Numbered from the stretch's first letter, positions 5,860-61,772 are shown. The stretch: DNA of 64,000 nt from Patescibacteria group bacterium (GCA_028710985.1 JAQTTB010000001.1:88021-152020); one strand, 5' to 3'. The notes: generated by a model from the sequence alone, not told the origin. Made by a program: numbers and translations.

Positions 5860-5888
5860 ACATTAATTCAAAATTAAAAATTCAAAAT

Positions 5889-7061
5889 TCAAAATTTTTC
5901 TTCACTCTCACCCAGGGTCACTGATACTATTTCAGTCTTCCCATCTCGCAATATCCCTAAGCTTATTTTATCACCTGGCGCGTATTCAAGCAAAAGATAC
6001 GCGAGCGAACCACGGCTGTTCAAGATTACGTCATTGAGCGATAAAATAATATCGCCCTCCCGAATTCCGGCGGCCTCGGCCGGAGAATCCGCCACAACCG
6101 CCGGCGGCACATCATCCTTGCCCGGCCATACGAGCGCGCCCTCTTTCTGCCCGGCCGTAATCTCGTCGTCAATTCCGGAAATCCTTGCAAGGTCGAGGTA
6201 CCGGACTCCGAGAAGAGGCCGCGTAATCCTTCCCTCCTTCAACATACTCTTCATCGCCGGAGTCAAGAGTTCGAACGAAAGACCAATCCCGCCCTCGGCA
6301 TCCTTGCCCCAAACGAGACCGATGACTTCGGCTTCGTAATTCAAGATCGGCGCGCCGAGCGGCGCGCCTCCCGCCGCAATAAGCAGCCGATTCGCCGGCG
6401 TGTCAGAATTCTGAAGATAAGTCGTTACGCCTGACGGATCATAGAACTTGCTTACGATATTTGATGAAATAAATTCATCCCGCCCGAACACGATCGCGAT
6501 CCGATCGCCGGAATCCATGAATTCTTCATCCGCAATCTGCACAACCGCGAGATTTTGAGCTGTAATTTTTACAAAAGCTGCGCCGGTTGTTTTATCGATC
6601 AGCATGCTGTCCAATGAATAAATGCTGCCTCCGATTTTGGCGAGTGCATTTCCAATTTTGGTATTTTTAAAAATTTCACCCGGCGCGATTAGCCATCCGT
6701 CCGAAGTAAAAACAACGCCATATCCAAGAATGTCGGTATCAAAATAAATTCCATCTTCAACCGCCTTGCCCGATTTCGTGGTATAGAAAACCGCGAGCGC
6801 CGGTATCACCCTCTCTCTGGCATTCTCTACCGCCGATTCAAAAGTCCCGGGCGAAACAAGCCGCGCCGTCGGGCTCGTAACGCGGGCAACCGGCTGCTCT
6901 ACCAGGCTGGAAAAATAATCTGATAAATACCCAAACGCCAAAAGCGCCCCGGCCGCACCTGCCACAATGCCGATTATCGCAAAAAGCGCCGTCCGGAACG
7001 TAAAGTGCCACAAACTCGGCTTTGTCGCCGCGGCTTCAGGTTCTTTTTTGACTTCATCCAT
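5889..7061 (-). CDS. HtrA-like trypsin-fold plus PDZ protein with an N-terminal transmembrane anchor. All three catalytic-triad positions appear substituted (LIAPGEIF where the His motif sits; AGGAPLGAP where GNSGGPL sits), so it is a probable pseudoprotease.
   Basis: Collinear with the bona fide HtrA at 18216..19496. PDZ segment: GIREGDIILSLNDVILNSRGSLAYLLLEYAPGDKISLGIL. Confidence 0.55.
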   Translation of the reverse strand: MDEVKKEPEAAATKPSLWHFTFRTALFAIIGIVAGAAGALLAFGYLSDYFSSLVEQPVARVTSPTARLVSPGTFESAVENARERVIPALAVFYTTKSGKAVEDGIYFDTDILGYGVVFTSDGWLIAPGEIFKNTKIGNALAKIGGSIYSLDSMLIDKTTGAAFVKITAQNLAVVQIADEEFMDSGDRIAIVFGRDEFISSNIVSKFYDPSGVTTYLQNSDTPANRLLIAAGGAPLGAPILNYEAEVIGLVWGKDAEGGIGLSFELLTPAMKSMLKEGRITRPLLGVRYLDLARISGIDDEITAGQKEGALVWPGKDDVPPAVVADSPAEAAGIREGDIILSLNDVILNSRGSLAYLLLEYAPGDKISLGILRDGKTEIVSVTLGESEEKF

Positions 7062-10257: not shown

Positions 10258-10707
10258 ATGCCCGCCATCAGTATCAACAAAAAAGGCCTGCACAATTACG
10301 AAATCCTGGAACGCTTCGAGGCCGGCATTGTTTTATCCGGCCAGGAGGTTAAATCCGTAAAAGGCGGCCAGATGCACCTGGACGGCGCCTATGTCCGCGT
10401 CCGCGGCGGCGAGGCCTGGCTCGTTGGCGCCGAAATCCCAAAATACCGCTTCGCCGGCCCTCTGCCGGATTACGACGCCCAGCGCACCCGCAAGCTCCTG
10501 TTCCGCAAGCGGGAAATCCGTTATTTAACCGGAAAAACCCAAGAAAAGGGGTTGACACTCGTGCCGGTTTCAGTGTATACTTCACGAAGTAAAATTAAGT
10601 TGGAAATCGGGCTGGCGCGTGGCCGGCAAAGCCATGATAAGCGCGATGTAATGAAAGAACGCGATGTCAAGCGCCAAATTGCCCGAGCCCTTAAAAGGGG
10701 GATGTAA
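10258..10707 (+). CDS. smpB: SsrA-binding protein SmpB.
   Basis: GQEVKSVKGGQMHLDGAYV ... RTRKLLFRKREI ... KIKLEIGLARGRQSHDKRD. It lies directly upstream of the tmRNA gene. Confidence 0.9.
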   Translation: MPAISINKKGLHNYEILERFEAGIVLSGQEVKSVKGGQMHLDGAYVRVRGGEAWLVGAEIPKYRFAGPLPDYDAQRTRKLLFRKREIRYLTGKTQEKGLTLVPVSVYTSRSKIKLEIGLARGRQSHDKRDVMKERDVKRQIARALKRGM

Positions 10708-11087
10708 AAGAATCGATAGGAGATCCTTTCATTGGATGCGAACCAAGGGCGGCCCGAACCTTGCAAATCCTCGGCCAATCAACAAATGCCAATTTCATGG
10801 CGAGAGTGAAGAGCGCTTTCAGCGTTCCTTCATTCCAAATGGCTATCGCATAAAATCGATGGCCCATCCGACCCGGTTAAGCTTGCTCACCGGGAGCCGG
10901 GTGTCATATCTGCAAGCTCGGCTCCTGCCGCTGCTCGCGGCCGGAACTTAAACAACCCAGAGCTCGTTTCGGTGTAATTTTGTCGGATTTCCTACCATCG
11001 AAATTAAAAAATCAAATCCGGACATGTTCGTAGAATTCCAATGGATCGGCTCACTAGACAGGGGTGCGATTCCCCTCATCTCCACCA
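10698..11087 (+). ncRNA. ssrA: tmRNA (ssrA), standard one-piece form.
   Basis: 5' end GGGGAUG...GAAUCGAUAGG is tRNA-like. 3' end GGGGUGCGAUUCCCCUCAUCUCCACCA gives a T-arm plus acceptor strand. The acceptor pairs GGGGAUG with CAUCUCC, including a G3-U70 Ala identity pair. Length about 390 nt, adjacent to smpB; the 5' end overlaps the smpB stop. Confidence 0.65.
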
Positions 11088-11217
11088 AACAGTTCATGCA
11101 GCCAAGAGTATTCAATATTTATCGATCGGGGTATTAATAGTAGTCCAAGGAATCGCACGGGCGCGAGAGTCCCGACGAAATGTCGGGACGGTGCGCAGCG
11201 CCCCGGACCCCGAGCGG

Positions 11218-11250
11218 AGCGAGGGGCGATTCCCCTCATCTCCACCAATT
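11218..11250 (+). repeat. Direct duplicate of the tmRNA T-arm, 3' acceptor strand and CCA (23 nt identical: GCGATTCCCCTCATCTCCACCAA). It lies 135 bp downstream of the intact 3' end, the arrangement expected for an att site.
   Basis: Compare 11066-11088 with 11226-11248. Confidence 0.6.
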
Positions 11251-11262
11251 CCAATAATACCG

Positions 11263-11814
11263 ATGAGAATATCAAGAAAAAGATACAAAAAACCGGTTAA
11301 TATCGAACCCCAGTATTTTTATAACGAAAAAATCCGCGTGCCCGAAATCATGGTCATCGCGGAAGACGGCCAGAACCTCGGCGTCATGCCAACCCATGAA
11401 GCAATCCGCATCGCCGCCGAACGGGAACTCGATGTTGTGGAGGTTAATCCCAAGGCCGTTCCGCCGATTGCGAAAATAATGGATTACGGCCAATTTAAAT
11501 ACCAAAAAGAAAAAGAATTCAGAAAACTGCGCGCCGGAGCCCACCGCGTGGAAGTAAAAGGTATCCGCCTTTCCGTGCGCATCAGCGACCATGACCTTGC
11601 CATACGGTGCGAACAGGCAAAAAAATTTCTTGACTCCGGCGACCGCGTAAAAATTGAGATACTTCTGCGCGGACGCGAGAAACAGCATCCCGAACTCGCC
11701 TTTGAGCAGGTCAGCGAATTTATCAATCAGCTTTCGAACGTAATAAAATTAAAAATTGAACAACCGGCGACGCGCCAGGGAGGAATGGTAACCGCGCTTG
11801 TTACAAAAACTTAA
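11263..11814 (+). CDS. infC: Translation initiation factor IF-3.
   Basis: NEKIRVPEIMVIAEDGQNLGVM ... KGIRLSVRISDHDLAIRCEQAKKFL ... IKLKIEQPATRQGGMVTALV. The track ORF 11041.. reads through the tmRNA 3' end, so its first 74 codons are rejected. A non-AUG start further upstream is possible. Confidence 0.8.
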   Translation: MRISRKRYKKPVNIEPQYFYNEKIRVPEIMVIAEDGQNLGVMPTHEAIRIAAERELDVVEVNPKAVPPIAKIMDYGQFKYQKEKEFRKLRAGAHRVEVKGIRLSVRISDHDLAIRCEQAKKFLDSGDRVKIEILLRGREKQHPELAFEQVSEFINQLSNVIKLKIEQPATRQGGMVTALVTKT

Positions 11815-13252: not shown

Positions 13253-13292
13253 GCGGACCGTACGGGATTCGAACCCGTGGTCTCCTCCGTGA
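13253..13292 (-). repeat. Copy of the 3' 40 nt of tRNA-Asp (anticodon-stem 3' half through acceptor 3' strand). It is flanked by a CTGCGG/CCGCAG inverted repeat and followed by a U-run on the minus strand.
   Basis: Identical to 13361-13400 of the intact tRNA and about 68 nt away from it. Confidence 0.55.
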
Positions 13293-13359
13293 TCCCGCAG
13301 CTCGCTCGCTTCGCTCGCGAGTGCAGGACAGGCAGGAAGGCGCAAAATAAAAAAATCTC

Positions 13360-13439
13360 AGCGGACCGTACGGGATTCGAACCCGTGGTCTCCTCCGTGA
13401 CAGGGAGGCGTGTTAAACCAGGCTACACCAACGGTCCGC
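13360..13439 (-). tRNA. tRNA-Asp (anticodon GUC).
   Basis: Reverse complement: GCGGACCGTTGGTGTAGCCTGGTTTAACACGCCTCCCTGTCACGGAGGAGACCACGGGTTCGAATCCCGTACGGTCCGCT. Cloverleaf with anticodon loop CUGUCAC. No encoded CCA. Confidence 0.85.
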
Positions 13440-13497
13440 TGAGATTTTTTTAAAGAACTAGGTTAGCGTGCTTGTCCCGCACCCTTGCGGTGCGGGA

Positions 13498-13524
13498 TTA
13501 AACCAGGCTACACCAACGGTCCGC
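13498..13524 (-). repeat. 27-nt copy of the tRNA-Asp 5' half (acceptor 5' strand plus D-arm), fused to a GC hairpin (TCCCGCACC-GCAAG-GGTGCGGGA).
   Basis: ttaaaccaggctacaccaacggtccgc is identical to 13413-13439. Confidence 0.45.
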
Positions 13525-25226: not shown

Positions 25227-25688
25227 TTAAGACTGCGCCGCTGTCCGCTCCGCGTTGCACAAATTCCGAAATTCTTCGGAACTAAGATACCGGCAATAAT
25301 TAACATTAAGTTCTATCCCGAGATTCGTGTAACAGTCGTCGCGCAGCGCCGGCGTAAAAATCGCCCGGCAGAGATCAATATTTTTATCTTCATACGCGAT
25401 TCCCAGATTTATTTTGTCCCCGCAGTCGCGCCGCGCCGCCAGGTCGGAAATGGACTCGCACTTCGCCGCGTCGCGCGCCCGCCGCGCTTCCATAAATATC
25501 GTTGACCATTCTTCGGTATAAGTAATTTCCGCGGCCGGCGGCTCTTGGGTTTGATTTGTAACTTGAACCTCCGCCGGCAGCTCAACGCTTGCGGCTTTTT
25601 GTTTTAAATAAAATCCCACGCTAAAAGCCAAAAATCCAAAAGCCAGCGCCAGAACCGCGATTATAATAATATTTTTATAATTCATCAT
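25227..25688 (-). CDS. Small N-terminally anchored Cys-containing hypothetical protein.
   Basis: ATGATGA overlap with the stop of the giant gene. Transmembrane segment IIIIAVLALAFGFLAFSVGFYL. Confidence 0.35.
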   Translation of the reverse strand: MMNYKNIIIIAVLALAFGFLAFSVGFYLKQKAASVELPAEVQVTNQTQEPPAAEITYTEEWSTIFMEARRARDAAKCESISDLAARRDCGDKINLGIAYEDKNIDLCRAIFTPALRDDCYTNLGIELNVNYCRYLSSEEFRNLCNAERTAAQS

Positions 25689-28600
25689 AGGCAGATTGGC
25701 GCTGAACAGGCGCAGTTGTTCTCACAGAATATTGAATTAAATACATTTCTAAGAACCGTCCGCGCCTCGGTTTCATTAGAATAATAATTCGCAATCGCGC
25801 CACTTCCCCAACTATCCCCAAAACTTATGAGACTACCATAGCTATAGATTGAATCTTCGAGTCGTGTCCAATTGCTAGGAGCTGACGTGCTGCGCGAGCA
25901 GTTTGAACTTTCTTCTCGTTTGGAAATTAAATAAAGTCTCGGTTTTTCATTTTGAGGAAATTCTTTAAAATAAACCTTGAGGGCGTTCATCGCGTCATTG
26001 TCAGCGTTCGTCCATTGCCCATTCAATGGTGTATTGCTATCAATCACCACCACGAGCCGCAACGCGCCGGTCCGCCATTCATGACCGGCCACCACGTCCA
26101 CGACCGCGCGCGCCCATGACGGCGTTTCATTTAATCCGGTAAAATGCCCGTCGGCCTGACAGTTGCCCAAATCGGACGCCCATTCCCTGCCGCACAAATC
26201 ATGGCTCGAAAGCCCCCCATAGGGTTCCAGCTCGACACTATGGAAATCTTTAAGTTTTCCGCCGATTGGAATTATGTTATCAATACAGCCTTCGATTTCG
26301 GCGGCCACGTCAGATTCATATAAAATATATTTAAAAGAGTTATTTTCATTTGCCAGATAGAATGTTTTTTTAATATCATAGTAAGGAAATCCAGAAATCG
26401 TATAATCAATCAACGGACAAATCATCTTTACATTATTCATAGTATCGCATGTCTTAACGTCAACTGAGTAGCTGGTCATGGTTGTGATAAAGACCGCATC
26501 AACTTTTCCGTCAAAATTTGCGATTCCCCAATCGCATTTTTCTCCATCGGCCTGGTCTTGGTTGCCGTCGCCACAGTATGGTGCATAAGCCGTGCAGGAA
26601 GCATTGCAATAGCGGTCAAACATATCGTTGTAATCGGGCGTGTTGTTCACCCCGGAATCGCAAACCTCGCCCTCGTTTTCAATTACCTTGACGCAACGGC
26701 TGCGCGTCGCGGGGTCTTCACAACGGTAGCAATACCCCAATGACAGCGTGCTATCGCCGGATTGTGCGCAGACTTGATCACCCGGACATGAGGCATCGGA
26801 AACACATGCCTGTAATGGATGTTCAAGCCCCCAATAAGCCTCTCCTTCTTCAGTCCCCGGCACCGGCGGATAAGGAATGCTCTGAATAATCGCATCGCCG
26901 CAGCGCGGACTCTCGCGCTTGGCAATGTGGCAGGTTGAATCGCAATACTCGGCGTTATAACCATAATCACCCGGCGCCTTTGGTGCGATGGCCGGCACAT
27001 GCCTATAAGAAATATTCTGCCCCTGGCAGACTCCTTCGTCATAACCCAAACCTGAAGTCGGTGCCATGCCTTCCCCATAAACAAACCCGCCCGGAGTAAT
27101 TGAGGTTAAAACATTAGGACACGCGTCCGCAGCATATGGATCGCATGATATATAGCCTTCCATTGGGTGATAATTGCCCGAGGTCCCCAGGGTCGGATAC
27201 CAGCAGGCAATCGGACCCTCGTCGCATTCCTCAATTCCCTCTTCTTTTATTCCGTCGCCGCAATAATCACCGGTCACGGTCGCAAATCCGCAATAGTCGG
27301 TGCAGAACGTGCAGGTATCGCCGTAGCGCGGCGTGCACGCTGTGCCATTTGCCGAACCCGCGTCGCAGGCTTCAATGCCCGCGTACTGATAACCGTCGCC
27401 GCAGCGCGATACGCGGCAGGAAACCGCAGTATCGTTTTCCCGGCCCGAAATAATGATGCAGCCGTCGGTGTTATCCGTATTGCCGTCGTCGCACTGTTCA
27501 ACGCCCTCAAGTATGCCGTTGCCGCAAACCCCGTCCGTCACGCAGCTCATGCCCCACGAATTCCATTTACAAGCATCGCTCGCGCAGGTACGCACGTATT
27601 TTAACTGATAGCCAGTACTCGGGTCGATGCCACATGGCAGATTACAGGACGTAAACGATTGTTTGACGCGGTACTCGCAATCCCCATAAGTAATATGATG
27701 GCTGCCAAACGTACAGGTCTCAAGCGTTCCCGGCCAATAATAGCCGGCCGACGATCCGGGACAATTTTCATCCGTGGTACATTTCATCTCCGGATAATAG
27801 CGGCAAACACCATCAGTTGTTTCTTGATGGTCATCGCCTTCGCACTGTTCTTCAGGCTGTAAAATATCATCGCCGCACATCGGACCCGGCACGCGGCAAT
27901 CCCAGCTGCAGCCCGAATCATACTGCCCATTCAAAACTCCGCGGTCGCATTGTTCGGCTCCGGCCATCATTGCGTCGCCGCAATATGCCGCGCTGCCCGC
28001 GCAGTCCGCGCTGCAATGTCCGTATTTTCCGTTATTTGACCCCTCGTCGCACGCCTCGCTCATAAAACAGAATGCGCCCGGGCAGTCGGTATCGCGCTGG
28101 CAGAGCAGGCCGTCAGACGCACCGCCCATGCAGAATCCTTCGCGCACGCCGTTGCCGCAAGCCGGGAGTGAATCCGCGCATTCGCCGTATCCGGATTCGC
28201 CCGAGACCGCCCAGCGGCACGCGCTCCCCTCTTTGACGCAGGAAACCGGCCGCGAGCTCGCCCCGGTGCAGCTTACAAATTTTTTGTCGCCGAGTTCGCA
28301 CTCTTCATCCGGACCGCGCACGCTGTCGCCGCATAAATTATCGTTTGCAAAAGTATTATTCGCGCAGCCCTGGTTCAGAGTTAAATGCGCGGGCAAAGAT
28401 TCCGGAGTCCAGTAATTCGGAAATTCAAGCGATGCGAGCAGTTCGTAATCTCCGGCGCCAAGCGACCGGTATTGATATACCAGGGATTCGGCCGGGCAGA
28501 AGAACCGGAGGCCCGTCGCGTCAAAGCAAGTCGCGCTGTCATAGCCCTCGCCGCAGGCCGCGAATTTATTGACCGGATCAACCGGTAAAACCTGGCCAAG

Positions 28601-31600
28601 CGCGCCGCCGAGCTCAATCTTCCATGACGGCCAGAGACTCGTGGAAAGCGACCGGAGATACGAGCCCGACGCCAAGGCCGGCATGCCGCCGCTCATTGCT
28701 TTATATGATTCAAAACTCGCCTCTAGCGACATGAGATCCGTAATCCTCTTAGTGTCGCGCCGCAGTTTGTCTTTATCCGCGTCGCAGGCCGAACGCGGAT
28801 TTGTCGCAAGACAGTCCAGATTACTGGTGCAGGAAATTATCTTTCCGTCCTCGCTCCGCAAAAAATCGCCGAATTCGTTGCGGCAAACGCGCGCATTATT
28901 TACATTGTCATAGTTCAATACGAAATTATTAAGCATCTGATTAAAAATGCCGACTGTCATTTCGTTCGCGCCTTCGTTGCGCGATAGTATATAAATATTA
29001 GTGAAAAGCGCCGGATCGCCGAATTTATTTGCTGCATTAATATACACGCTCGTGCCGACGCGCACTGCCGGATAACCGTCAACCTCCATTACCTCCGGTT
29101 CGCCGCCAAAGCCCTGGCTCCGATACCACTCTTCAGCCGAAAGATGGCTGGGATTCGGCATAACGCGGAGACCGATGGCGTCGCGCGCCCAAGCCGCGGC
29201 TGGATCCGAATTTTTATAAACCAAAAGATAATCTCTAAGCACCCCGGCCGGCGGAGATTCAACCCTCTTCACCTCCAGCTCGGGCAAAAGTTCGGGCGCG
29301 CTGTCGCGACAATAAGTAGTGGCGAAATGAAAATCAGTCGGATCTGCAAAAATCAGCCACGGATTTTCGCAAAGATTGACCATCGCGGTTACCGAATCGG
29401 TCACCGTCTCGCCGGCGCAGCGGCCCGGCGCAATTTCCGACTCCCCAACGCATAAATTTCGCGGGCAGTCCGAATCACGGGCGCATGCTTTTCCAAAAAA
29501 ATTATTAATTGTAACCTTAGCCTGCGCGCTCACCTGCTCTTCGCCGTTTAGTCCGGCCGGCGTCACCATCTGATCCGCGGCGTCGCTTGTTGTAACGTTG
29601 ACTATATTTTTATCAGTCGTCGTATCGTCTGGAATTGCCGAAGCCCAGCTCCATTCCCATTCGTATTGGCCGGGCGTTTCCTGAATCGCCGTAGGTGAAA
29701 GTCCGGCGCGCCGGCTCACTGCGAGCGCGGAAAAACTCCGCGCGCCATGCGGCTCTTCGAGGCTCGCCGCGTCTTTGGTGTCAAAGAAAAAATCTTCTTC
29801 CGGATCGGCGATGTAAACATAATCAAGTTTGCAAATTTCCGTGCCCGTGCCGAAATAACTGGCGTAATAATTATTCAACGCCACGCCGTCAACCGATTCA
29901 ACGGCTTCTAAAACCCTAATTTGGTACCATGTATCCGATTCTAAAGTTCCTTTATATCTATAATAAACCGATTTACCATCGGCCGAGAGCTCAACTGCGC
30001 CGTCAACGATATCTCCCTCGCAATAATTCAGCGTTTCCGGATCCGGCGTTTCCGGCGCCCGCGCCTGGGCAAATCTGCCCGTAATACCCGCGAATAAATT
30101 TTTAAAACTCTGCCATACGGCACGCCACCACGGCAGATAAGCATCGGCGCGCGTCACAAGCACGGATGTATAATTCACTTCTCCGGCATTACAATTTTGC
30201 GTTTTACCTTTTAACAAAATTATCCGGTTTTTTGTCGTCCCGCCTTGATCGTATTTTAACGAAGCGGCATTCAAAGCCTGCGAAAAATCAATTTTCACCG
30301 CGGCGTTGCGGCATTGATCGTTTGAACTGTTCGCCGGAATCACGGCCGAAACCCGCGGCATGGGATAACAACATGAATTATCCGCAAGTCCGAGCTCCGG
30401 ATCGATGGCGCGGCATTCAGCATCAGTCGTGAATCCGCAAAGAATTGTAAAATTAGCAGTTCCGGTTTTTTCCTCAGTCGCTGCGAAAATTTCCGTTGCC
30501 TGATTGCCCTGTTCATTAACTTCCCCGCGGCCAACCGCCTCGGCGACCTGAACCGGATCAGCGAGTCCGTCACCGTCCACGCTCTCGCAACCCGCCTCTT
30601 CGCCCGTCCCAACCACGCCGTCGCCGCAAAATGACGACATCGCGTATTCTCCCGATGAACCGAGCGCCAAACAATTTTTGCCGCATCCCTGCCTACCGGC
30701 AGGCAGGCTTTCGCCGCCGTCGCAATCCTCTCCCTGTTCCTTGAGGCCGTTGCCGCAGCAATTTGCGACCGTCGGATCGGAGCAGGGATAGGTACCTTCA
30801 TTCAGACACTTATCCGAACAGCCGTCGCCCGAACGCGGCCGGCATTGAGAGTCGCCGATACCCGCGCATTCAAGATTGGAACGGCACGTGGTTCTCATGT
30901 CCGCGCAAATTTTTCCGTTGTCGCAATCCTCACCGAGTTCGCGCTCCGCCGTACCGTTGCCGCAAACTGCGAGCGGTCCAGAATCCGAACCTTCGTTCAA
31001 GCATTCACTTGAGCAGCCGTCGCCGTTCCGACGGTTCATATCGTCGCAATCCTCACCGTCTCCCAAATCCCCGTTGCCGCAAACCGAACCGGCGAGCGTC
31101 GCTCCCTCATTCTGGCAGCCTTCGGAGCAGCCGTCGCCGGAAATATTATTGCCGTCATCGCATTCTTCGTGGCCCGTAATCCAGACGTTGCTCCATGGTG
31201 AAATATATGTCGGATCGTCAATATCTGCGTTTCCACAGGTGCCGCCCGACGCAACCGTCTCCACCGCTTCCCTGAGACACCGCGCCGAACAACCGTCGCC
31301 AACCAAAATATTTTTATCATCGCATTCCTCACCCATCGATATTTCGACATTGCCGTTGCCGCAAACCGCGATATTCATTCTTGAACCCAAGTGCAAACAA
31401 TTTGACTTGCCGCACCATGCCGAAACGCTTGCCGGCGCCGTATCAATCATTCCGGCCGCAAGCAACCGCCCGACATCCTCGTCTCCCGACGACCAGCCCC
31501 AGTTGTAGCCCCACGGATCCAGGCTCTGGCCCTTGGCACTGCATTCATCCGCTTCGCCATAAGGCACGGCCGAATACTGTACTCGCTCCCCCTGGCCACG

Positions 31601-34600
31601 CGTTATTCCGTTGACCGGCGCGACTTCAACACGATCAATGGCGCAAAGCTCAGGCGTATCCTTTGTCCTAAATATCCACGAAAAACTCTCGCCGTAATTT
31701 AAACCCGTCAGGCTCGTGTCGGTATAACTCTTAATTTGATCTGACAAAATTACCCGGTAATACGTTTTTTGTTTGAATACGGCATGATTCACCACAATTT
31801 CTTCCCAGGTTGACATGTCAACCGCGGACACGCCGGTTACGAGATTGCCGCCCGCGAATGAACGGCAATTTTCATTCTCGCATTCCAGAATCTGAATGTT
31901 TCCCGGAGCCATGAGCGAATCCGCGTCCATAAGTGTATTAAAACCAATGCGCACCCCGGCGTTGCGGCAAGCCTCGGTGCAGTTCGGTTCGTAGAAAATC
32001 ACCGTCGGATCAGTAAAATCGATCACCAGCTCTCCGACGCCACTCTTACCCTCCGCTTCCGCGGAGATCGAAACCGGTTCGCCGCGCGTTTCGGTGAGCG
32101 GCAAAACTTCCGCGAGCCAATCACTTATCGGATCCGGCACCGCAATCTGCGCTTTTAAAATATCACTTGCCGACCAGAGCCAGTCATAACCGCTCGGATT
32201 TAGGACAAGACAAATATCATCTGATGAAACCGCGGCCGCGGCATACGGAATCGAATCCTTGGATTTCGCAATTTTGTAATCCGGCGTAACCGCGACTTGT
32301 CCCAAAGCGCACGGCTCACTCGTCGCGCGGGTCTTCCATGAATAGCAATATGCAAAACCCTCACCGCACGCCGAACGCTCTTCCATATTTAAGTTTCCGA
32401 CACTCGCATCACCGCGAAGCGCGGTCGCGAGCTTAACCTCATAAACGCTTGATGAATCAAGCGCCGACGCGGGCAAAATCTGGAAACCCCGGTTGTCGCC
32501 AAGCGCGTTAATTTTTGACGTTTCAACATCAACCGTGGCTGAACATGGATCATCCGCGCCAGCTACGCATTTATAAAATTTAATATTTTCGGTCGTAAAC
32601 CTCGCCGTATCCATGGGCACATTAAATCGCACTGTCGGTACGGCATTGACGCAGGCCTCGCCGCTCCGCGCATCCCAGGGCGACGGCGATGCCGGCAAAT
32701 CCTCGGCCGCGCAGGATTCAATTACCTGCGGCGTAATCGGGATAATTCCGGTTGAAAAACGCCACACGAAAGACGCCTCGCGCGGGCCGACCGCGCATTC
32801 CTCATCCGCGCCGCGGCAGGTGCCGTCGGCGCAGCACTGTTGATCCGCGTCGCAGGCCGCCGGCTCGTCAAGACAGTTCTCAACCCGGAAATTTATGCCG
32901 TTTGACGGCAATCCTCCGGATGAAGTCGCGACCACCGGACCGGTCGCCGCGCCAGCGGGCACAACGGATGATATTTCAGTGTTTGACCATGCATTGATTT
33001 GCGCGTTTTTCAAATTATAAAACATTACCGAACCGGCCGAGCCGCCGAGCCGTTCGCCAAAAATAACAACCGCGGTTCCCGCCGGACCGGCGCTTGGCGA
33101 AATTCGGCAGACTCCCGGCGCGAGCGCCGCTGTCGTCACCGTGAACGCGGCCGCGTCGCTTGTTTTGGCGTCAGAACGCGTCACGCGTATTTCATGCGCG
33201 CCGGCCGATACCGCTCCGCCGTCCGCGTATGCGGCCGGCACTTTAACCGTAATGCTGTCCGCCATCCAAAAATCCGTGCCGCAGGCTTCGGGAAAATTAA
33301 AATCCCCGAGCGCTGATTGGCCCGTGGATGTATTTATAAAAGTCACTTTACCGACCGACGAACCAAAATTACTGCCGCGCAGCGTCACATACTCGCCGAT
33401 CGGACCCATAGCCGGACTCACTTCCGCGATCACCGGTTTGCCGCTGAGCCCCCGCTCGACAACTTGAAAATCTACTCCATTTGAAGAAACTCCCCCGACC
33501 GAAACGCGCACCGGATATTCACCTTCCCCCATCGGCGGAATAGTCGCGCGCACGGCTCCGGCCGCCCACGACTCAATCCGGCCGGCCGGCACTTCGCCGA
33601 CCGTTACCGCGCCTTCAGCCTCACCGAATCCCGAACCCGAAATTGAAATCGCATCGCCGGCTTCTCCCTGGTTCGGATTTATTTCACAGATGCCCGGACG
33701 CGCTATCGTATTCACGAGAAAATCCGCCACCACCGGTCCGCGGGTATTGTCCGTGGTGTCTGCTTCGCCGGCCAATGATACAACTTCAATCGGGCCGCTT
33801 GGCGCTGCCGCCGGGACAGTTATAATAATTTGATTATTTGACCAGACGCTCGTGCATGCCGCAAGCGGAGCTTCAATCTCATCCCCTTCGGCAGCGGCTC
33901 CCAAAAATCTTACTGTTCCGCGCGCAACTCCAAAATATTGACCCGCAATCGTGACAAGCGTACCGGGTGCGCCGTCCAGGGGATCAACACCTTCAATGAG
34001 CGGAAGCGCAACGCAAATTCCGCCCTCGCAATAACCGGATGAACATTCTTCGCTCATAGTGCAGGTTCCACCGGCGCAGGAACCGCAGTATTCCGCGCTC
34101 CCCGAATCCTCACCGCAATCAATGCCGGTCTCTTCGCTATCACGCACGCCATTAAAACAATGTTCAGCCCGAGCAACTACGGAAACCGATTCCGATGTTC
34201 CGCTATTGTCGTCAATATCATAGGCCCGCGCCTGAACCGAATGCCGCGAACCGAGCTCAAGGCCGGTCGTATCCCAGTCAACCTCGGCAGTAAAATTCAT
34301 GGGCGTCGGCGAAGGCGGCCCGTCGCTTGACCAAAGCGCGCCATCAACATCAAAATCCACGACCGAAACCCCGGCATCGTCCGTGGCCTCGGCCTGAAAA
34401 GTTATTATTGAATTTACCGGAATGCCCTGACCGTTATCTGGATAATTTAAAACAACATTCGGACCGGTTACGTCCACGAGATTGCCGGTTGAAAATGAAC
34501 CTTCGCATATCGCGCCGAATCCGCTGCAGCTCACATACATTCCGCCCGAACTCCGAAGTCCGGTCGCTATCGAAACGCGGTATTCAGTATCCGCGTCAAA

Positions 34601-35302
34601 GCATTTTTTACTCTGGTTCGGATCCGGGCACGCCGCGTCCGGCACAAAAATCACCTTGTTTCCCGCCGCGCTGAACGCACCTTCAACGCGCGTGCCATCT
34701 GCTGCGCGCGCGACTGTAATATTCCGCTCAATCGTTCCCGCGTCAACCGCGGCGTTGAATAAAATTCTGATCGCAACATTGCGGATTGGCACCGCGCCCT
34801 GCGGACTCATGCTTTCAACCTGAAATGTTCTTGTTACGCCGCCGGGGATTCCGCCTCCGCCCGGACCGGTCGGACCGGCACCCTCCTCAACCCCGGTTGC
34901 CCGGAGCAATGAATTCAGTACAAACTGAGAAATCGCAAAAGATGTCAGAATGATCGCAAGCCCGATCACCGCATTGGTCAAAACCTTTTTCGCGTTTCCA
35001 ACCTTTTCTTCGTCTCCGCCGGCCGTCATCCACAAAAATCCGCCATAAAGCACAAAGATCAGCGCGATAATACCGAGTAGACCAAGAGCGATGTTGATAA
35101 TTCTCGCGACAATCACGCGGATATCTCCGCCGCCGAGCTGGATCTCCTCTGCCACCGGCTCAATCCCCACGTCTACCGCCAAAACCGCATGCATGAACGA
35201 CAAAATGCTAACCGCAGTTATCAAAAAAATACCCGCCAAAACAAAACTTTTGACTTTTGACTTAGACTTTTGACTTTTGACTTTTGACTTTTGACTTTTC
35301 AT
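25685..35302 (-). CDS. Giant (3205 aa) cell-surface protein. It has an N-terminal signal/transmembrane segment plus a two-helix pilin-like membrane module, a Gly-rich linker, and then Ig-like domains, IPT/TIG-like domains and many Cys-rich repeats of the CGNGxxExGEECDDGNxxxGDGCSxxC type.
   Basis: Single uninterrupted ORF. N-terminus MKSQKSKVKSQKSKSKVKSFVLAGIFLITAVSIL...DIRVIVARIINIALGLLGIIALIFVLYGGFLWMTAGG...KKVLTNAVIGLAIILTSF. Repeated V-x-P-x-x-G...FS.PMD Ig-like blocks. At least 15 CxxGxxxxGEECD repeats. Confidence 0.8.
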   Translation of the reverse strand: MKSQKSKVKSQKSKSKVKSFVLAGIFLITAVSILSFMHAVLAVDVGIEPVAEEIQLGGGDIRVIVARIINIALGLLGIIALIFVLYGGFLWMTAGGDEEKVGNAKKVLTNAVIGLAIILTSFAISQFVLNSLLRATGVEEGAGPTGPGGGGIPGGVTRTFQVESMSPQGAVPIRNVAIRILFNAAVDAGTIERNITVARAADGTRVEGAFSAAGNKVIFVPDAACPDPNQSKKCFDADTEYRVSIATGLRSSGGMYVSCSGFGAICEGSFSTGNLVDVTGPNVVLNYPDNGQGIPVNSIITFQAEATDDAGVSVVDFDVDGALWSSDGPPSPTPMNFTAEVDWDTTGLELGSRHSVQARAYDIDDNSGTSESVSVVARAEHCFNGVRDSEETGIDCGEDSGSAEYCGSCAGGTCTMSEECSSGYCEGGICVALPLIEGVDPLDGAPGTLVTIAGQYFGVARGTVRFLGAAAEGDEIEAPLAACTSVWSNNQIIITVPAAAPSGPIEVVSLAGEADTTDNTRGPVVADFLVNTIARPGICEINPNQGEAGDAISISGSGFGEAEGAVTVGEVPAGRIESWAAGAVRATIPPMGEGEYPVRVSVGGVSSNGVDFQVVERGLSGKPVIAEVSPAMGPIGEYVTLRGSNFGSSVGKVTFINTSTGQSALGDFNFPEACGTDFWMADSITVKVPAAYADGGAVSAGAHEIRVTRSDAKTSDAAAFTVTTAALAPGVCRISPSAGPAGTAVVIFGERLGGSAGSVMFYNLKNAQINAWSNTEISSVVPAGAATGPVVATSSGGLPSNGINFRVENCLDEPAACDADQQCCADGTCRGADEECAVGPREASFVWRFSTGIIPITPQVIESCAAEDLPASPSPWDARSGEACVNAVPTVRFNVPMDTARFTTENIKFYKCVAGADDPCSATVDVETSKINALGDNRGFQILPASALDSSSVYEVKLATALRGDASVGNLNMEERSACGEGFAYCYSWKTRATSEPCALGQVAVTPDYKIAKSKDSIPYAAAAVSSDDICLVLNPSGYDWLWSASDILKAQIAVPDPISDWLAEVLPLTETRGEPVSISAEAEGKSGVGELVIDFTDPTVIFYEPNCTEACRNAGVRIGFNTLMDADSLMAPGNIQILECENENCRSFAGGNLVTGVSAVDMSTWEEIVVNHAVFKQKTYYRVILSDQIKSYTDTSLTGLNYGESFSWIFRTKDTPELCAIDRVEVAPVNGITRGQGERVQYSAVPYGEADECSAKGQSLDPWGYNWGWSSGDEDVGRLLAAGMIDTAPASVSAWCGKSNCLHLGSRMNIAVCGNGNVEISMGEECDDKNILVGDGCSARCLREAVETVASGGTCGNADIDDPTYISPWSNVWITGHEECDDGNNISGDGCSEGCQNEGATLAGSVCGNGDLGDGEDCDDMNRRNGDGCSSECLNEGSDSGPLAVCGNGTAERELGEDCDNGKICADMRTTCRSNLECAGIGDSQCRPRSGDGCSDKCLNEGTYPCSDPTVANCCGNGLKEQGEDCDGGESLPAGRQGCGKNCLALGSSGEYAMSSFCGDGVVGTGEEAGCESVDGDGLADPVQVAEAVGRGEVNEQGNQATEIFAATEEKTGTANFTILCGFTTDAECRAIDPELGLADNSCCYPMPRVSAVIPANSSNDQCRNAAVKIDFSQALNAASLKYDQGGTTKNRIILLKGKTQNCNAGEVNYTSVLVTRADAYLPWWRAVWQSFKNLFAGITGRFAQARAPETPDPETLNYCEGDIVDGAVELSADGKSVYYRYKGTLESDTWYQIRVLEAVESVDGVALNNYYASYFGTGTEICKLDYVYIADPEEDFFFDTKDAASLEEPHGARSFSALAVSRRAGLSPTAIQETPGQYEWEWSWASAIPDDTTTDKNIVNVTTSDAADQMVTPAGLNGEEQVSAQAKVTINNFFGKACARDSDCPRNLCVGESEIAPGRCAGETVTDSVTAMVNLCENPWLIFADPTDFHFATTYCRDSAPELLPELEVKRVESPPAGVLRDYLLVYKNSDPAAAWARDAIGLRVMPNPSHLSAEEWYRSQGFGGEPEVMEVDGYPAVRVGTSVYINAANKFGDPALFTNIYILSRNEGANEMTVGIFNQMLNNFVLNYDNVNNARVCRNEFGDFLRSEDGKIISCTSNLDCLATNPRSACDADKDKLRRDTKRITDLMSLEASFESYKAMSGGMPALASGSYLRSLSTSLWPSWKIELGGALGQVLPVDPVNKFAACGEGYDSATCFDATGLRFFCPAESLVYQYRSLGAGDYELLASLEFPNYWTPESLPAHLTLNQGCANNTFANDNLCGDSVRGPDEECELGDKKFVSCTGASSRPVSCVKEGSACRWAVSGESGYGECADSLPACGNGVREGFCMGGASDGLLCQRDTDCPGAFCFMSEACDEGSNNGKYGHCSADCAGSAAYCGDAMMAGAEQCDRGVLNGQYDSGCSWDCRVPGPMCGDDILQPEEQCEGDDHQETTDGVCRYYPEMKCTTDENCPGSSAGYYWPGTLETCTFGSHHITYGDCEYRVKQSFTSCNLPCGIDPSTGYQLKYVRTCASDACKWNSWGMSCVTDGVCGNGILEGVEQCDDGNTDNTDGCIIISGRENDTAVSCRVSRCGDGYQYAGIEACDAGSANGTACTPRYGDTCTFCTDYCGFATVTGDYCGDGIKEEGIEECDEGPIACWYPTLGTSGNYHPMEGYISCDPYAADACPNVLTSITPGGFVYGEGMAPTSGLGYDEGVCQGQNISYRHVPAIAPKAPGDYGYNAEYCDSTCHIAKRESPRCGDAIIQSIPYPPVPGTEEGEAYWGLEHPLQACVSDASCPGDQVCAQSGDSTLSLGYCYRCEDPATRSRCVKVIENEGEVCDSGVNNTPDYNDMFDRYCNASCTAYAPYCGDGNQDQADGEKCDWGIANFDGKVDAVFITTMTSYSVDVKTCDTMNNVKMICPLIDYTISGFPYYDIKKTFYLANENNSFKYILYESDVAAEIEGCIDNIIPIGGKLKDFHSVELEPYGGLSSHDLCGREWASDLGNCQADGHFTGLNETPSWARAVVDVVAGHEWRTGALRLVVVIDSNTPLNGQWTNADNDAMNALKVYFKEFPQNEKPRLYLISKREESSNCSRSTSAPSNWTRLEDSIYSYGSLISFGDSWGSGAIANYYSNETEARTVLRNVFNSIFCENNCACSAPICL
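35271..35298. repeat. Heptanucleotide tandem repeat (TGACTTT on the plus strand, AAAGTCA in the coding sense), four perfect units plus imperfect flanking units. It starts within codons 2-10 of the giant gene.
   Basis: gacttttgacttttgacttttgacttttgacttttcat. The unit length is not a multiple of 3. Confidence 0.7.
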
Positions 35303-37105
35303 CTATCGTTGCTTTACCGGAAAACTCTGACAGGCTCCGGTTGAACGTGAATTTGACGGCTGTTCATCGCAACACCACGGTGCTCCATCCCGATCCTTGG
35401 GACAACCGGGCGTCGCGGCCGGGCTGAAACAATTTTGATAAACATCTTTAACGTCAGAAAATATTTCCGGATAATATTCGGTTTCTTCAAGGAATAAACC
35501 GTGGCGCATACTGGTCAGCGTATGATGAGGAACAAGTTCTCCTTCGGCCGCAAGACCGTCTTCAGTCAAATTCTCGGAATCAAATGAATACCAGATCGCA
35601 AACTCATCTTCCTGATTATCTCCGAGCAGAATATTGGATGAATTCAAACCCGAAAAACTCATGAGCGTATCCCAGATAATTTCAACCGGCAAATCCGGCG
35701 CTACCACGCCTTCGCCGGCTGAAGGATTTACCGACACCACCGACGGCGGTTCAATCAGCACGTTATCCGTCGTTCTGAAAGTCCAAAGATAATTGTCCGT
35801 TGATGGCCCTTCGGCCGTGCCGTTGCCGTTTCCGTCAAGAGAATTGCCCGCCATATCAACCACGCCGTTATACGGGAATATCGCGGCCGGCGCCTCATCC
35901 GACGCCATGCTTGCCGCCTTGACCGTCACGCCAATGTCCGCGTTCCCCGGCAGGCAGAATACCTCTCCACCGCATGAATTAGTGCCGCAAGACTCATCCG
36001 ATAAAAATTCCACAGTTTTGTATTCATTGGAAATGCTGAATGTGCCGAGAATAATTCCGCCGCCCTCGGCCATGAGATTGCTGAAGCGACTCGTATGGCC
36101 GGTCGCGGATGTCGGGTCCACCGGTTCGGAAAAATTAATCTGAATAACCACGTTTTTGGGATATTCCTCGCTCGCGCGCGGGAATACGCTTCTTACTTCC
36201 GGCGGCGTCAAATCCACAAAAGTGCTCACCTGAAAATTCCACTGGTAACCGTCGCTCATTGAGCCCTGAAACGCATCATCACCCTCTGCATCTTTGATAT
36301 TCGGCCCGAGCGAAACGGTATAGGAAACATTTTCACTCGCCGAACCGAGCCACTCGACGGGCTGAAAAACAAAAGTTTTCAAATCGTCCGTGAACCGCAC
36401 GCACGCGCCGGTTTCGCGAAGCGCGCTTCCCTCTCCGTCGGCCGTCCTGTATATCTTGACGTTCGCGCCGTTAAGCAAGTCACTCGCCGTGTCGTCGCTC
36501 ACATCAAGCGGCGTATCATTGTCATCGTAGCCGGAAATAAACGATTCAATGGACATTTCTTTTTTAAAAGTCACGAGTATCCTGGTATTTCGCGGAATAT
36601 CGGTCGCCCCGCGCGCCGGATAATGATAGCTGATCACGCCGTTGCCAAGCGCGCTTGAGAACTGCTCGTATGTCGCCGGCGGCCCGGACGGCCCGCCTCC
36701 GGGACCAAAAATTCCGCCCTCACCCAAGAGCGCGGAAAATACAAAATAGGTAATCGCCCAGGACATAAGAATGATTGCAAGCCCGATCGCCGCGTTGGTC
36801 AAAACCTTTTTCGCTTTTTCTACCCTTTCTTCAACTCCGCCGGCCGTCATCCATAAAAATCCTCCGTACAGCGTGAGAGACAAAGCGATCACCGCGAGCA
36901 AACCGAGAGCGACATTGATAATCCGCGCGACAATCACCCGGATATCGGTCTGCGACGCGCCGATGGCTTCGCCGACCGGCTCCAAACCCACATCAACCGC
37001 TCCGACTATCGTCGGAGTCGCGAAAATAAAAAAGAACGCAAAGCTTATTACTAAAACAAATATAAGCCTCGCGTTCTTCTCGAAATTTTGTTTTCCTTTC
37101 CGCAT
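35303..37105 (-). CDS. 600-aa paralog of the giant protein's N-terminal region: the same pilin-like two-helix module and Gly-rich linker, followed by about three Ig-like domains.
   Basis: AVDVGLEPVGEAIGASQTDIRVIVARIINVALGLLAVIALSLTLYGGFLWMTAGG...KKVLTNAAIGLAIILMSW aligns residue-for-residue with the giant protein's N-terminus. Its stop codon abuts the giant gene's ATG. Confidence 0.75.
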   Translation of the reverse strand: MRKGKQNFEKNARLIFVLVISFAFFFIFATPTIVGAVDVGLEPVGEAIGASQTDIRVIVARIINVALGLLAVIALSLTLYGGFLWMTAGGVEERVEKAKKVLTNAAIGLAIILMSWAITYFVFSALLGEGGIFGPGGGPSGPPATYEQFSSALGNGVISYHYPARGATDIPRNTRILVTFKKEMSIESFISGYDDNDTPLDVSDDTASDLLNGANVKIYRTADGEGSALRETGACVRFTDDLKTFVFQPVEWLGSASENVSYTVSLGPNIKDAEGDDAFQGSMSDGYQWNFQVSTFVDLTPPEVRSVFPRASEEYPKNVVIQINFSEPVDPTSATGHTSRFSNLMAEGGGIILGTFSISNEYKTVEFLSDESCGTNSCGGEVFCLPGNADIGVTVKAASMASDEAPAAIFPYNGVVDMAGNSLDGNGNGTAEGPSTDNYLWTFRTTDNVLIEPPSVVSVNPSAGEGVVAPDLPVEIIWDTLMSFSGLNSSNILLGDNQEDEFAIWYSFDSENLTEDGLAAEGELVPHHTLTSMRHGLFLEETEYYPEIFSDVKDVYQNCFSPAATPGCPKDRDGAPWCCDEQPSNSRSTGACQSFPVKQR

Positions 37106-39893: not shown

Positions 39894-39935
39894 AAAGTAA
39901 TTTTGATATTTGTTATTCTCGGGCTCGCTCCATGG

Positions 39936-40053
39936 TGGGCAACGTCCCGACCCGTCGGGACGACCTTTCCGAATGATTTTAGACAATGGGCAACGCTGGA
40001 CTCTCCGCCCGAGGCGGACCCGCCCCTGGCGGGGAACCAGCGACCTTTCCGAA
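39936..40053 (-). repeat. Two tandem degenerate copies of the tRNA-Val 3' half (anticodon-stem 3' side through GTTGCCCA). Each follows a 13-nt linker TTGTCTAAAATCA. In each copy the T-arm is replaced or interrupted by a GC-rich hairpin.
   Basis: An 80-nt periodic repeat: cgacctttccgaatgattttagacaatgggcaacgctggactc occurs at 39961-40002 and again at 40041-40082. Confidence 0.6.
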
Positions 40054-40066
40054 TGATTTTAGACAA

Positions 40067-40140
40067 TGGGCAACGCTGGACTCGAACCAGCGACCTTTCC
40101 GATGTGAACGGAACGCTCTAACCAGCTGAGCTAGTTGCCC
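40067..40140 (-). tRNA. tRNA-Val (anticodon CAC).
   Basis: Reverse complement: GGGCAACTAGCTCAGCTGGTTAGAGCGTTCCGTTCACATCGGAAAGGTCGCTGGTTCGAGTCCAGCGTTGCCCA. Confidence 0.85.
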
Positions 40141-61083: not shown

Positions 61084-61662
61084 CGTCATTCCCTCCCCCG
61101 CTTTCGCGAGGGTAAACTCCAGCGGGAATCTTGCTAAAAAATCTTGGTGTCATCTGTCATTCCCGCGAAGGCGGGAATCCAAGTTCAATATACCGGGGGA
61201 ATCCTATTGAATATTATCGTACAAATCGCTCCAGAGAGGATTAAAATCTTCAATTATTCTAATTTTCCAATTACGTTTCCATTTTTTTAATTGTTTTTCC
61301 CGTAATATGGCCTCCTCAATATTATCGAATATTTCATAATAGACAAGTTTGTGCACGCCATATTGAGCCGTGAATATGCTATCTTCTCCTTGCTTATGCT
61401 CAAGAACTCGGCGCTTAAGATTATTCGTTACACCGATATAAAGAGTACCGTTTCTGTCGCTTGCGAGGATATAAATATAGAATTGTCGATAATCGGGCAT
61501 TTGTGCGATTGATGTATCTTGGCGGCTTATAGTATCTGGATTCCCGCCTTCGCGGGAATGACGGATGTGCGGTTTATTTTTATCCGTTGCAACTAAATAA
61601 ATTACCATGGGCATGGATTCCCGCTGGAGTTTACCCTCGCGAAAGCGGGGGCGGGAATGACG
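61084..61662. mobile_element. Candidate miniature mobile cassette: a GIY-YIG gene framed by nested inverted repeats. Outer 47-bp pair (46/47 identical) at 61084-61130 and 61616-61662. Inner 25-bp pair (25/25 identical) at 61156-61180 and 61538-61562.
   Basis: cgtcattccctcccccgctttcgcgagggtaaactccagcgggaatc versus its reverse complement. gtcattcccgcgaaggcgggaatcc versus its reverse complement. Extra GGGAATGAC motifs extend to 61738. Confidence 0.45.
61204..61500 (-). CDS. Small GIY-YIG nuclease-domain protein (UPF0213/YhbQ-like).
   Basis: FYIYILASDRNGTLYIGVTNNLKRRVLEHKQG ... EKQLKKWKRNWKIRII. Confidence 0.75.
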   Translation of the reverse strand: MPDYRQFYIYILASDRNGTLYIGVTNNLKRRVLEHKQGEDSIFTAQYGVHKLVYYEIFDNIEEAILREKQLKKWKRNWKIRIIEDFNPLWSDLYDNIQ

Positions 61663-61772
61663 ATAGGTTGAATAGTGTTTCTACCGTCTAAATTCCCGCC
61701 GGAGCCTGTAGTACATATGCGAATGGGGCGGGAATGACAGAGAGATGCGTTCCAATATACTCCCTTCCCACC

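Follow-up and report, generated by a model that had tools for sequence, protein, structure and literature searches.

Integrative elements at tmRNA and tRNA genes

The genes of transfer-messenger RNA (tmRNA) and tRNA are classic landing sites of integrating elements, and the known occupants encode their own integrase. Among the closest described systems are the ssrA islands of Dehalococcoides, which are bounded by a 20-bp repeat, have their insertion point in the T-loop and carry a conserved motif upstream of each repeat (PMC3146451). These islands rely on a serine recombinase, and some of them are without an integration module (PMC3146451). Another related class comprises the cis-mobilizable elements (CIMEs), that is, decayed integrative and conjugative elements (ICEs) or integrative and mobilizable elements (IMEs) still possessing their attachment (att) sites attL and attR and having lost the genes for integration and transfer (PMC5704250). 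The locus described here lies in a 64,000-nt stretch of DNA from a Patescibacteria group bacterium (GCA_028710985.1, JAQTTB010000001.1:88021-152020), hereafter the window, meaning the whole stretch that was analysed. In this window an intact tmRNA gene (ssrA) is followed by 135 nt of inserted DNA and then by a second copy of its own 3' end. The chances are judged about even that positions 11088-11248 are a miniature, non-autonomous, CIME-like site-specific integrative element in the tmRNA 3' end, with an enzyme that would be supplied in trans.

The repeat and the insert

The ssrA gene of the window (10698-11087, + strand) matches the full Rfam RF00023 model with 96.2 bits and E = 2.9e-36, encodes its own CCA, has the T-arm AGGGG-TGCGATT-CCCCT, and has homologues in all relatives examined. 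The 23-mer GCGATTCCCCTCATCTCCACCAA is found exactly twice in the window, at 11066-11088 and at 11226-11248, and zero such recurrences are expected by chance in 100 shuffles, even with three mismatches allowed. The repeat in fact reaches 26 nt, with 25 of the 26 matching (11063-11088 against 11223-11248). Its start lies within the T-stem and T-loop (GGTGCGATT...), a canonical sublocation, and its last bases are CCA(A). A target recognised by the full Rfam model is here combined with a direct repeat of its own 3' end bounding the inserted DNA. The spacing of 135 nt runs from 11088, after the tmRNA CCA, to 11222, before the 26-nt repeat. An earlier interpretation made without comparison to other genomes, the sequence-only reading, had described an intact ssrA ending at 11087, a 3'-end duplicate at 11226-11248, and a hairpin within the 135 bp between the copies; all of this was borne out, the hairpin being a perfect 8-bp stem. 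The features of the locus are as follows, L029 being a contig of a related lineage that carries a homologous insert.

10698..11087, + strand: tmRNA gene ssrA (Rfam RF00023; homologues in relatives)
11063..11088, + strand: repeat copy 1, attL-like, GGTGCGATTCCCCTCATCTCCACCAA, which in the functional tmRNA extends from T-stem and T-loop down to the CCA
11088..11148, + strand: AT-rich left part of the insert, 61 nt, with no detectable conservation against the L029 insert
11149..11222, + strand: GC-rich conserved structured module, 74 nt, recognised by its identity to L029 and its fold
11169..11189, + strand: perfect 8-bp hairpin GTCCCGAC-GAAAT-GTCGGGAC, 8 perfect pairs
11223..11248, + strand: repeat copy 2, attR-like, GGGGCGATTCCCCTCATCTCCACCAA, matching copy 1 at 25/26

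Occupied and empty sites among relatives

Syntenic contigs of nine related lineages or strains were reached through SmpB homologues. In L029 and L030 a homologous 154-bp insert has the same architecture as in the window, and in L031 and L032, which belong to the species of L029 and L030, the insert is precisely absent, with a single copy of the repeat. Over 10.3 kb covering both flanks, the contigs L030 and L032 share 99.83-99.93% identity, their sole structural difference being the 154-bp insert; in a BLAST comparison the 25-nt repeat of L032 aligns to both copies of L030, and it is this repeat that bounds the insert. Likewise, the same SmpB protein (P0010) is present on the occupied L030 and on the empty L031. 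This is a strain-level presence/absence polymorphism with its borders at the repeat.

Beyond these strains, infC follows the tmRNA CCA after 11-43 nt in L025/L026, L027/L028, L033, L035 and L036, with no second copy of the repeat. In total, the site is empty in six other related lineages, including the nearest relatives of each occupied lineage. The second copy is thus not part of a 3' trailer conserved in all relatives, which is what the sequence-only reading had named as evidence against an insertion; and its suggestion of a resting attB-like scar fails because the empty sites carry a single copy. The occupied site that it had expected in related genomes was found in part, as occupied and empty alleles, but no integrase-bearing island lies between the repeats. 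The sole occupied form seen, in five contigs of two species, is a unit of ~155 nt, the inserts measuring 160 and 154 bp. The form of the window recurs unchanged in two further assemblies (L001 and L002), and the contigs L029-L032 derive from four different assemblies; since several independent assemblies agree, an assembly artefact is unlikely.

The distribution was measured by the concatenated protein identity of SmpB, L20 and an AI-2E transporter. On this scale the window shares 59% with L029 and 65-66% with L025 and L027, both of which are empty, and L029 shares 85% with L023, which has no repeat, and 100% with the empty L032. The two occupied lineages are not mutual closest relatives, and the distribution is patchy; vertical inheritance would consequently require at least four independent losses, and two independent insertions at one site would be the simpler account. 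A scan of GTDB genomes with SmpB yielded only relatives of at most 53% identity, in which the check for duplicates covered the two ARAGORN-called tmRNAs, each with a single-copy 3' end; Rfam found three more tmRNAs. In L023 the tmRNA is followed by a ~170-nt AT-rich spacer (5861-6013) with no repeat, which may be an older insertion without its second repeat. The first ~50 nt of this spacer resemble the AT-rich left part of the window's insert, with a local p of ~0.02 that is uncorrected and not relied on.

Conservation and fold of the insert

Comparison of the window with L029 at the nucleotide level showed identities of 68% for smpB, 72.5% for the tmRNA gene and 67% for infC. The AT-rich left part (61 against 59 nt) reaches 53%, the GC-rich module (74 against 70 nt) 85%, or 96% outside one hairpin, and copy 2 of the repeat 92%. 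Homology of the two left parts was not supported, their similarity being no better than that of shuffles (global p ~0.17, local p ~0.5). In the hairpin, the arms GTCCCGAC/GTCGGGAC of the window are replaced by GTCCTGC/GCAGGGC in L029 with the pairing kept: one C-G pair has become U-A through changes in both arms, and one U-A pair has become U-G through a change in a single arm. The comparison favours a discrete, conserved miniature element over a randomly decayed remnant, since the GC-rich part exceeds the tmRNA gene itself in conservation and the hairpin covaries. The remnant of an excised or decayed island proposed in the sequence-only reading is accordingly probably not the product of random decay: no strain with a large island and an integrase was found, and a conserved ~155-nt unit stands in its place. 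In each of the two elements the lone mismatch between the repeat copies falls within the left 9 nt of copy 2, as expected if the crossover lies to the right of it.

The module opens with a 5' arm, GGAATCGCAC (11149-11158), that corresponds to the tmRNA T-loop segment GTGCGATTCC in reverse complement; this match covers 10 nt of the window's insert and 9 nt of that in L029 (shuffle p ~0.004 and ~0.013). It is followed by an outer stem, in which GGGCGC (11159-11164) pairs with GCGCCC (11198-11203) and encloses the inner hairpin at 11169-11189, and the segment CGGAGCGA adjoins copy 2 of the repeat. In the minimum-energy fold the pairing of the arm GGAATCGCAC closes the whole module, and the consensus fold has, besides the outer stem with the hairpin that it encloses, a short stem-loop CGG/CCG and, at the 3' end, a minihelix-like hairpin. 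The latter, GGAG-C-GAGG...CCTC-AT-CTCC with a 3' ACCA tail, is predicted to form from copy 2 together with the preceding GGAGCGA. The fold of the module is only slightly beyond that of shuffles (z = -2.0). A covariance model of the module (R1), run on the window and 21 loci, recovered only the known copies, that is, one in the window and the others in L029 and L030 at ssrA.

Coding capacity, transcription and known families

The 135-nt insert has no conserved reading frame, and no integrase gene lies inside it. A coding N-terminal extension of initiation factor 3 (IF-3) was considered and rejected, as the window and L029 put the same nucleotides of the module into different frames; the insert is therefore not coding. 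When every open frame of the module was used as a protein query, the extended IF-3 of the L029 type was the sole match. Since the insert is open in the frame of infC, gene callers lengthen IF-3 artefactually, adding ~50-75 residues: the open reading frame (ORF) of the window that starts at 11041 (11041-11814) has 257 aa and that of L029 (5891-6589) has 232 aa, the expected length of IF-3 being ~183 aa.

A promoter and terminator scan found neither in the insert. Within the smpB coding region the promoter scan revealed a sigma-70-like promoter, TTGACA-18-TATACT at 10552-10581, with a homologous site inside smpB of L029, and this is presumably the promoter of ssrA. Lying between the ssrA promoter and infC, without a promoter or terminator of its own, the insert should be transcribed. 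Membership of a known RNA family was rejected as well: of the Rfam 15 families, the L20 leader, tmRNA variants and ribozymes among them, the tmRNA itself is the sole match, and positions 11149-11250, searched with E values up to 10, gave nothing except a chance fragment of GA-cis.

Searches for a relative of the element gave the following picture. The exact 22-mer of the tmRNA 3' end and a 20-mer of the module have no match in IMG/VR, and BLAST of the insert against phages and plasmids yielded short chance matches only. A single match of the module 20-mer in JGI metagenomes was dismissed as chance, lying inside a pilin-like gene of an unrelated contig. A looser 16-mer hits at least 120 loci in IMG/VR, all of them canonical GGTTCGA T-loops of other bacteria, which serve as an analogy for the att geometry only. 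The repeat boundary seen here recurs in many IMG/VR contigs, namely those with pieces of the tmRNA or tRNA-Ala 3' end of other bacteria.

Neighbouring genes and the ancestral spacer

The gene order of the region is smpB - ssrA - infC - rpmI - rplT, and the features flanking the tmRNA gene and the insert are these.

10258..10707, + strand: smpB (Pfam SmpB)
11249..11263, + strand: leftover of the ancestral ssrA-infC spacer, from comparison with L025, L027, L032 and L036
11264..11814, + strand: infC (IF-3), true start ATG at 11264 (MRISRK...)

The stop codon of smpB overlaps the first bases of ssrA (10698-10707). In L025, L027, L032, L035 and L036 the ssrA-infC spacer of 25-43 nt is a hairpin whose 3' arm adjoins or overlaps the infC start codon, and this hairpin may have a role in processing or translation control; in L033 the spacer has 11 nt and no hairpin. 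The hairpin of the relatives' empty sites is absent from the 11249..11263 spacer, the window being without its 5' half. ARAGORN misses the tmRNA of the window and was likewise unsuccessful on the tmRNA of related members of the clade; among all loci scanned with it, a tmRNA was called only in two distant ones (L003 and L004). The T-loop of the tmRNA is TGCGATT, the usual form being TTCGAAT.

Other tRNA-type loci and GIY-YIG genes

Three of the six tRNA-type genes in the window carry partial copies of themselves together with GC hairpins, and with half of these genes affected the phenomenon may be common in the clade. Partial tRNA copies also break short-read assemblies, and the short-read contigs L001 and L002 break within the tRNA-Asp 3' fragment. 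The features concerned, along with two large genes of the window, are listed below.

13361-13437, - strand: complete tRNA-Asp, nested in an older split tRNA-Asp gene (13253-13524)
25685-35302, - strand: 3205-aa protein with an N-terminal T4SS-pilin-like domain, then Ig-like, TIG and Big domains
35303-37105, - strand: adjacent 600-aa protein with an N-terminal T4SS-pilin-like domain, then Ig-like, TIG and Big domains
40067-40140, - strand: tRNA-Val, followed by two further 3'-half copies (locus 39933-40140)
61204-61614, strand not given: small GIY-YIG nuclease gene (Pfam E = 1.5e-17)

Read along the minus strand, the tRNA-Asp locus begins with the ancestral promoter and leader, a 27-nt 5' fragment (13524-13498) and a perfect hairpin (13497-13475). 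The complete tRNA-Asp then follows with its own 14-nt complementary leader and trailer, and after it come a GC-rich spacer (13343-13293) and a 40-nt 3' fragment (13292-13253) that extends from the anticodon loop to the 3' end. The locus ends with the ancestral trailer, the complement of the ancestral leader, and the old gene lacks 12 nt. In relatives, a plain tRNA-Asp gene stands at the homologous promoter.

At the tRNA-Val locus, the first of the two further 3'-half copies (copy B) includes a 14-nt trailer, and a 30-nt double GC hairpin is inserted in the T-loop of copy B (40004-40033). In copy C the T-arm is replaced by the hairpin TCCCGAC-GGG-TCGGGAC (39944-39960), and this is the only Val copy that ends in an encoded CCA. 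The hairpins of Val copy C and of the tmRNA module have identical 8-nt arms (GTCCCGAC/GTCGGGAC), an identity left unexplained. The relative L158 has a single plain tRNA-Val gene with an encoded CCA. In the sister species represented by L157 (LytR 91% identical), positions 1-215 hold a promoter homologous to the one of the window's tRNA-Val, only the first 11 nt of tRNA-Val, 22 nt and then an ORF starting MHFVYLIKSKKDSSIYIGFT; the ORF corresponds to a GIY-YIG-like N-terminus, and the 1.9-kb contig ends there. A nuclease gene may have been inserted in the tRNA gene of L157.

The GIY-YIG gene of the window is bracketed by inverted repeats (61084-61741), 47 nt long with 98% and 45 nt long with 84% complementarity, which consist of GTCATTCCCGC...GCGGGAATCC palindromic units; the whole has a transposon-like layout and lies between recO and the next gene. 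Hairpins of the TCCCG..CGGGA kind with at least 8 pairs are confined, in the 64 kb, to the tmRNA, Asp and Val loci and the surroundings of the GIY-YIG gene. Similarity of the modules and spacers to the palindromic units flanking that gene was not significant, and clusters of a GCGAG motif beside the fragments proved uninformative, this pentamer being common in the genome. As regards the two large proteins, giant surface proteins of the T4SS-pilin-like and Ig-like kind are typical of Patescibacteria.

A candidate miniature integrative element and its alternatives

If the insert is a miniature integrative element, it would carry its own copy of the last ~26 nt of the tmRNA, from the T-loop to the CCA, and recombination inside this segment would leave the tmRNA complete (copy 1) and bring copy 2 next to the old trailer and infC. 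The element would be gene-less, consisting of an unconstrained AT-rich part of ~61 nt and the 74-nt module directly upstream of copy 2, the module being the part that the recombination machinery would recognise, whether the module serves as arm or accessory sites or folds into an att structure. With no gene in the insert and no recombinase in the window, any enzyme must act in trans; the attL/attR geometry that the sequence-only reading had ascribed to an integrase stands as geometry, backed by the insertion and by its occupied and empty alleles, and the integrase itself is a presumption. Such a recombinase would probably be a tyrosine or serine integrase with tmRNA specificity, provided by a full-size element elsewhere, so that the unit would spread in the manner of a CIME or of a miniature inverted-repeat transposable element (MITE) by parasitising the enzyme of another element. 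Its circular form, or attP junction, would read ...CGGAGCGAGG + core + AACAGTTCATG..., and the unit could be lost through recombination between the two repeat copies.

Several points weigh against this account. A Pfam scan detected no recombinase or transposase among the ~50 ORFs of the window, and no full-size relative bearing the module was found in IMG/VR, in JGI metagenomes, in phage and plasmid collections or by translated search. The independent copies number only two, and the covariation concerns a single hairpin. The two inserts show no demonstrable homology in their left parts, which would fit two independent decays that kept the same right end. Excision and integration of a ~155-bp circle are sterically demanding for a recombinase. 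Finally, the nested tRNA-Asp in the same window could not be produced by one att crossover and hints at another mechanism.

Foremost among the alternatives, unlikely in our estimation, is that the two inserts are independent remnants of larger islands or prophages once integrated in the tmRNA gene, the module being the functional right end (arm sites) of related parents and now inert. The att-like geometry fits this account, as does the fact that the right module is significantly similar in the two lineages and the left parts are not, and decayed, integrase-less ssrA islands have been documented (PMC3146451), the definition of a CIME providing a ready category (PMC5704250). The two inserts are nevertheless nearly equal in size (160 and 154 bp) and layout, and no intermediate or full-size form is present in the five occupied contigs of two species or in the six empty lineages. 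Moreover, polymorphism in a 99.9%-identical background would demand either that integration and near-total deletion were very recent or that the relic is very old yet 96% conserved. Simpler to set aside is the idea that replication slippage or unequal crossing-over duplicated the tmRNA 3' end locally and that the spacer then drifted. Tandem direct repeats at short distance are what this would leave, but the 135-nt spacer is unrelated to the tmRNA or to the ancestral spacer, and a homologous insert stands at the same site in a lineage of 59% protein identity when nearer relatives are empty, which makes such a duplication very improbable. Selection by the host offers another explanation, in which a beneficial structured RNA in the ssrA-infC transcript, be it a processing signal of the pre-tmRNA or infC mRNA or an RNA pairing with the T-loop, was acquired once or twice and then kept. 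The expected transcription of the insert, its strong sequence conservation with a covarying hairpin, the 9-10-nt arm complementary to the tmRNA T-loop and the predicted minihelix-like 3' end with ACCA would all suit it. The RNA is, however, dispensable, since six related lineages and some strains of the same species do without it; it matches neither the L20 leader nor any other Rfam family, its fold is weakly better than shuffles, and the target-site repeat is left unexplained; this account is hence considered improbable.

The arrangement at the other tRNA-type loci calls for two further accounts, since that of tRNA-Asp goes beyond one att crossover and a second process may thus act on the tRNA-like genes of the clade. 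On the one hand, a family of tiny gene-less hairpin elements might colonise tRNA and tmRNA genes of the clade, each bringing a replacement for a piece of its target and moving without a classical integrase, for example by a folded single-strand att site through natural transformation or by break repair that GIY-YIG nucleases would trigger, such as the putative one in tRNA-Val of the sister species. The replacement piece would then be the 3' end for ssrA and tRNA-Val and the whole gene for tRNA-Asp, and the tmRNA insert would be the cleanest member, with an arm mimicking the T-loop of its target; we regard this as a rather unlikely possibility. On the other hand, a break-repair or homing-type process, possibly linked to GIY-YIG nucleases or to palindromes, may act on tRNA-like genes, in which case the repeat would be a rescue copy and not an att core. 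Such a process would accommodate the nested tRNA-Asp with its 12 lost nucleotides, the two 3'-half copies behind tRNA-Val with T-loop or T-arm interrupted or replaced by GC hairpins, the 11 nt of tRNA-Val followed by a GIY-YIG-like ORF in L157, the restriction of TCCCG..CGGGA hairpins to these loci and the GIY-YIG surroundings, and the 8-nt arms shared by the tmRNA module and Val copy C. It is set back by the lack of significant similarity of the tmRNA module and the Asp and Val spacers to the inverted-repeat units flanking the GIY-YIG gene, by the model R1, which finds no copy of the module at Asp or Val, and by the L029 hairpin, which is without the TCCCG motif. The L157 contig, for its part, ends 20 codons into the GIY-YIG-like ORF, and a simple att crossover fully accounts for the tmRNA insert taken by itself, so that a break-repair origin appears quite unlikely.

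Comparison with known systems

Placed beside the islands and prophages that occupy the 3' ends of ssrA and tRNA genes, the locus has the same intact target, behind which its 3' end (20-26 nt, from the T-loop or T-stem to the CCA) recurs in direct orientation, the same conserved motif directly upstream of the displaced repeat, and the same empty sites in related strains. The difference is one of size and gene content, as these islands are kilobases long and usually have an integrase next to attL, whereas the insert here consists of 135 nt plus the repeat, with no ORF and with no integrase found nearby.

CIMEs are alike in having att-like repeats on both sides, no recombinase of their own and a presumable dependence on the enzyme of a related element, and the insert corresponds to them in keeping an attL-like and an attR-like copy in the absence of genes for integration and transfer. 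Known CIMEs are, however, kilobase-sized with recognisable cargo, and the unit here has ~155 nt and comes at one size in both of the distant lineages; the conservation and structure of its core suggest that the miniature propagates as a unit of its own. With MITEs and repetitive extragenic palindromic (REP) elements it has in common its tiny size, the lack of coding capacity, a GC-rich, structured make-up closed by an inverted-repeat stem and, as would apply here, mobilisation in trans. In contrast, MITEs and REPs are multicopy, produce short target duplications and are not bound to a gene, while the module here is single-copy in 64 kb, lies only at ssrA and is accompanied by a 26-nt duplication that restores the gene end, and it does not belong among them.

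A further likeness exists to the folded att sites used by integrons (attC) and by CTX-phi (attP, XerCD), in that the core could pair, through its start GTGCGATTCC, with the inverted arm GGAATCGCAC that lies 61 nt upstream, the two enclosing a structured loop beside the attR-side junction; the inner hairpin here likewise keeps its structure more than its sequence. The target is nonetheless the tmRNA T-loop and not dif or attI, and the arm has 8-10 bp and covers the core in part, with no sign of a single-stranded intermediate.

On balance, the finding fits best among the known tmRNA-targeting integrative elements, as a miniature variant of them. As the known occupants of tmRNA and tRNA genes are kilobase-sized, the ~155-nt unit would, if this is true, be their minimal form, and it would define the cis requirements of a tmRNA-specific recombination system: it keeps only the att core and one structured module, and it is gained or lost among near-identical strains, here in a 0.7-Mb Patescibacteria genome.

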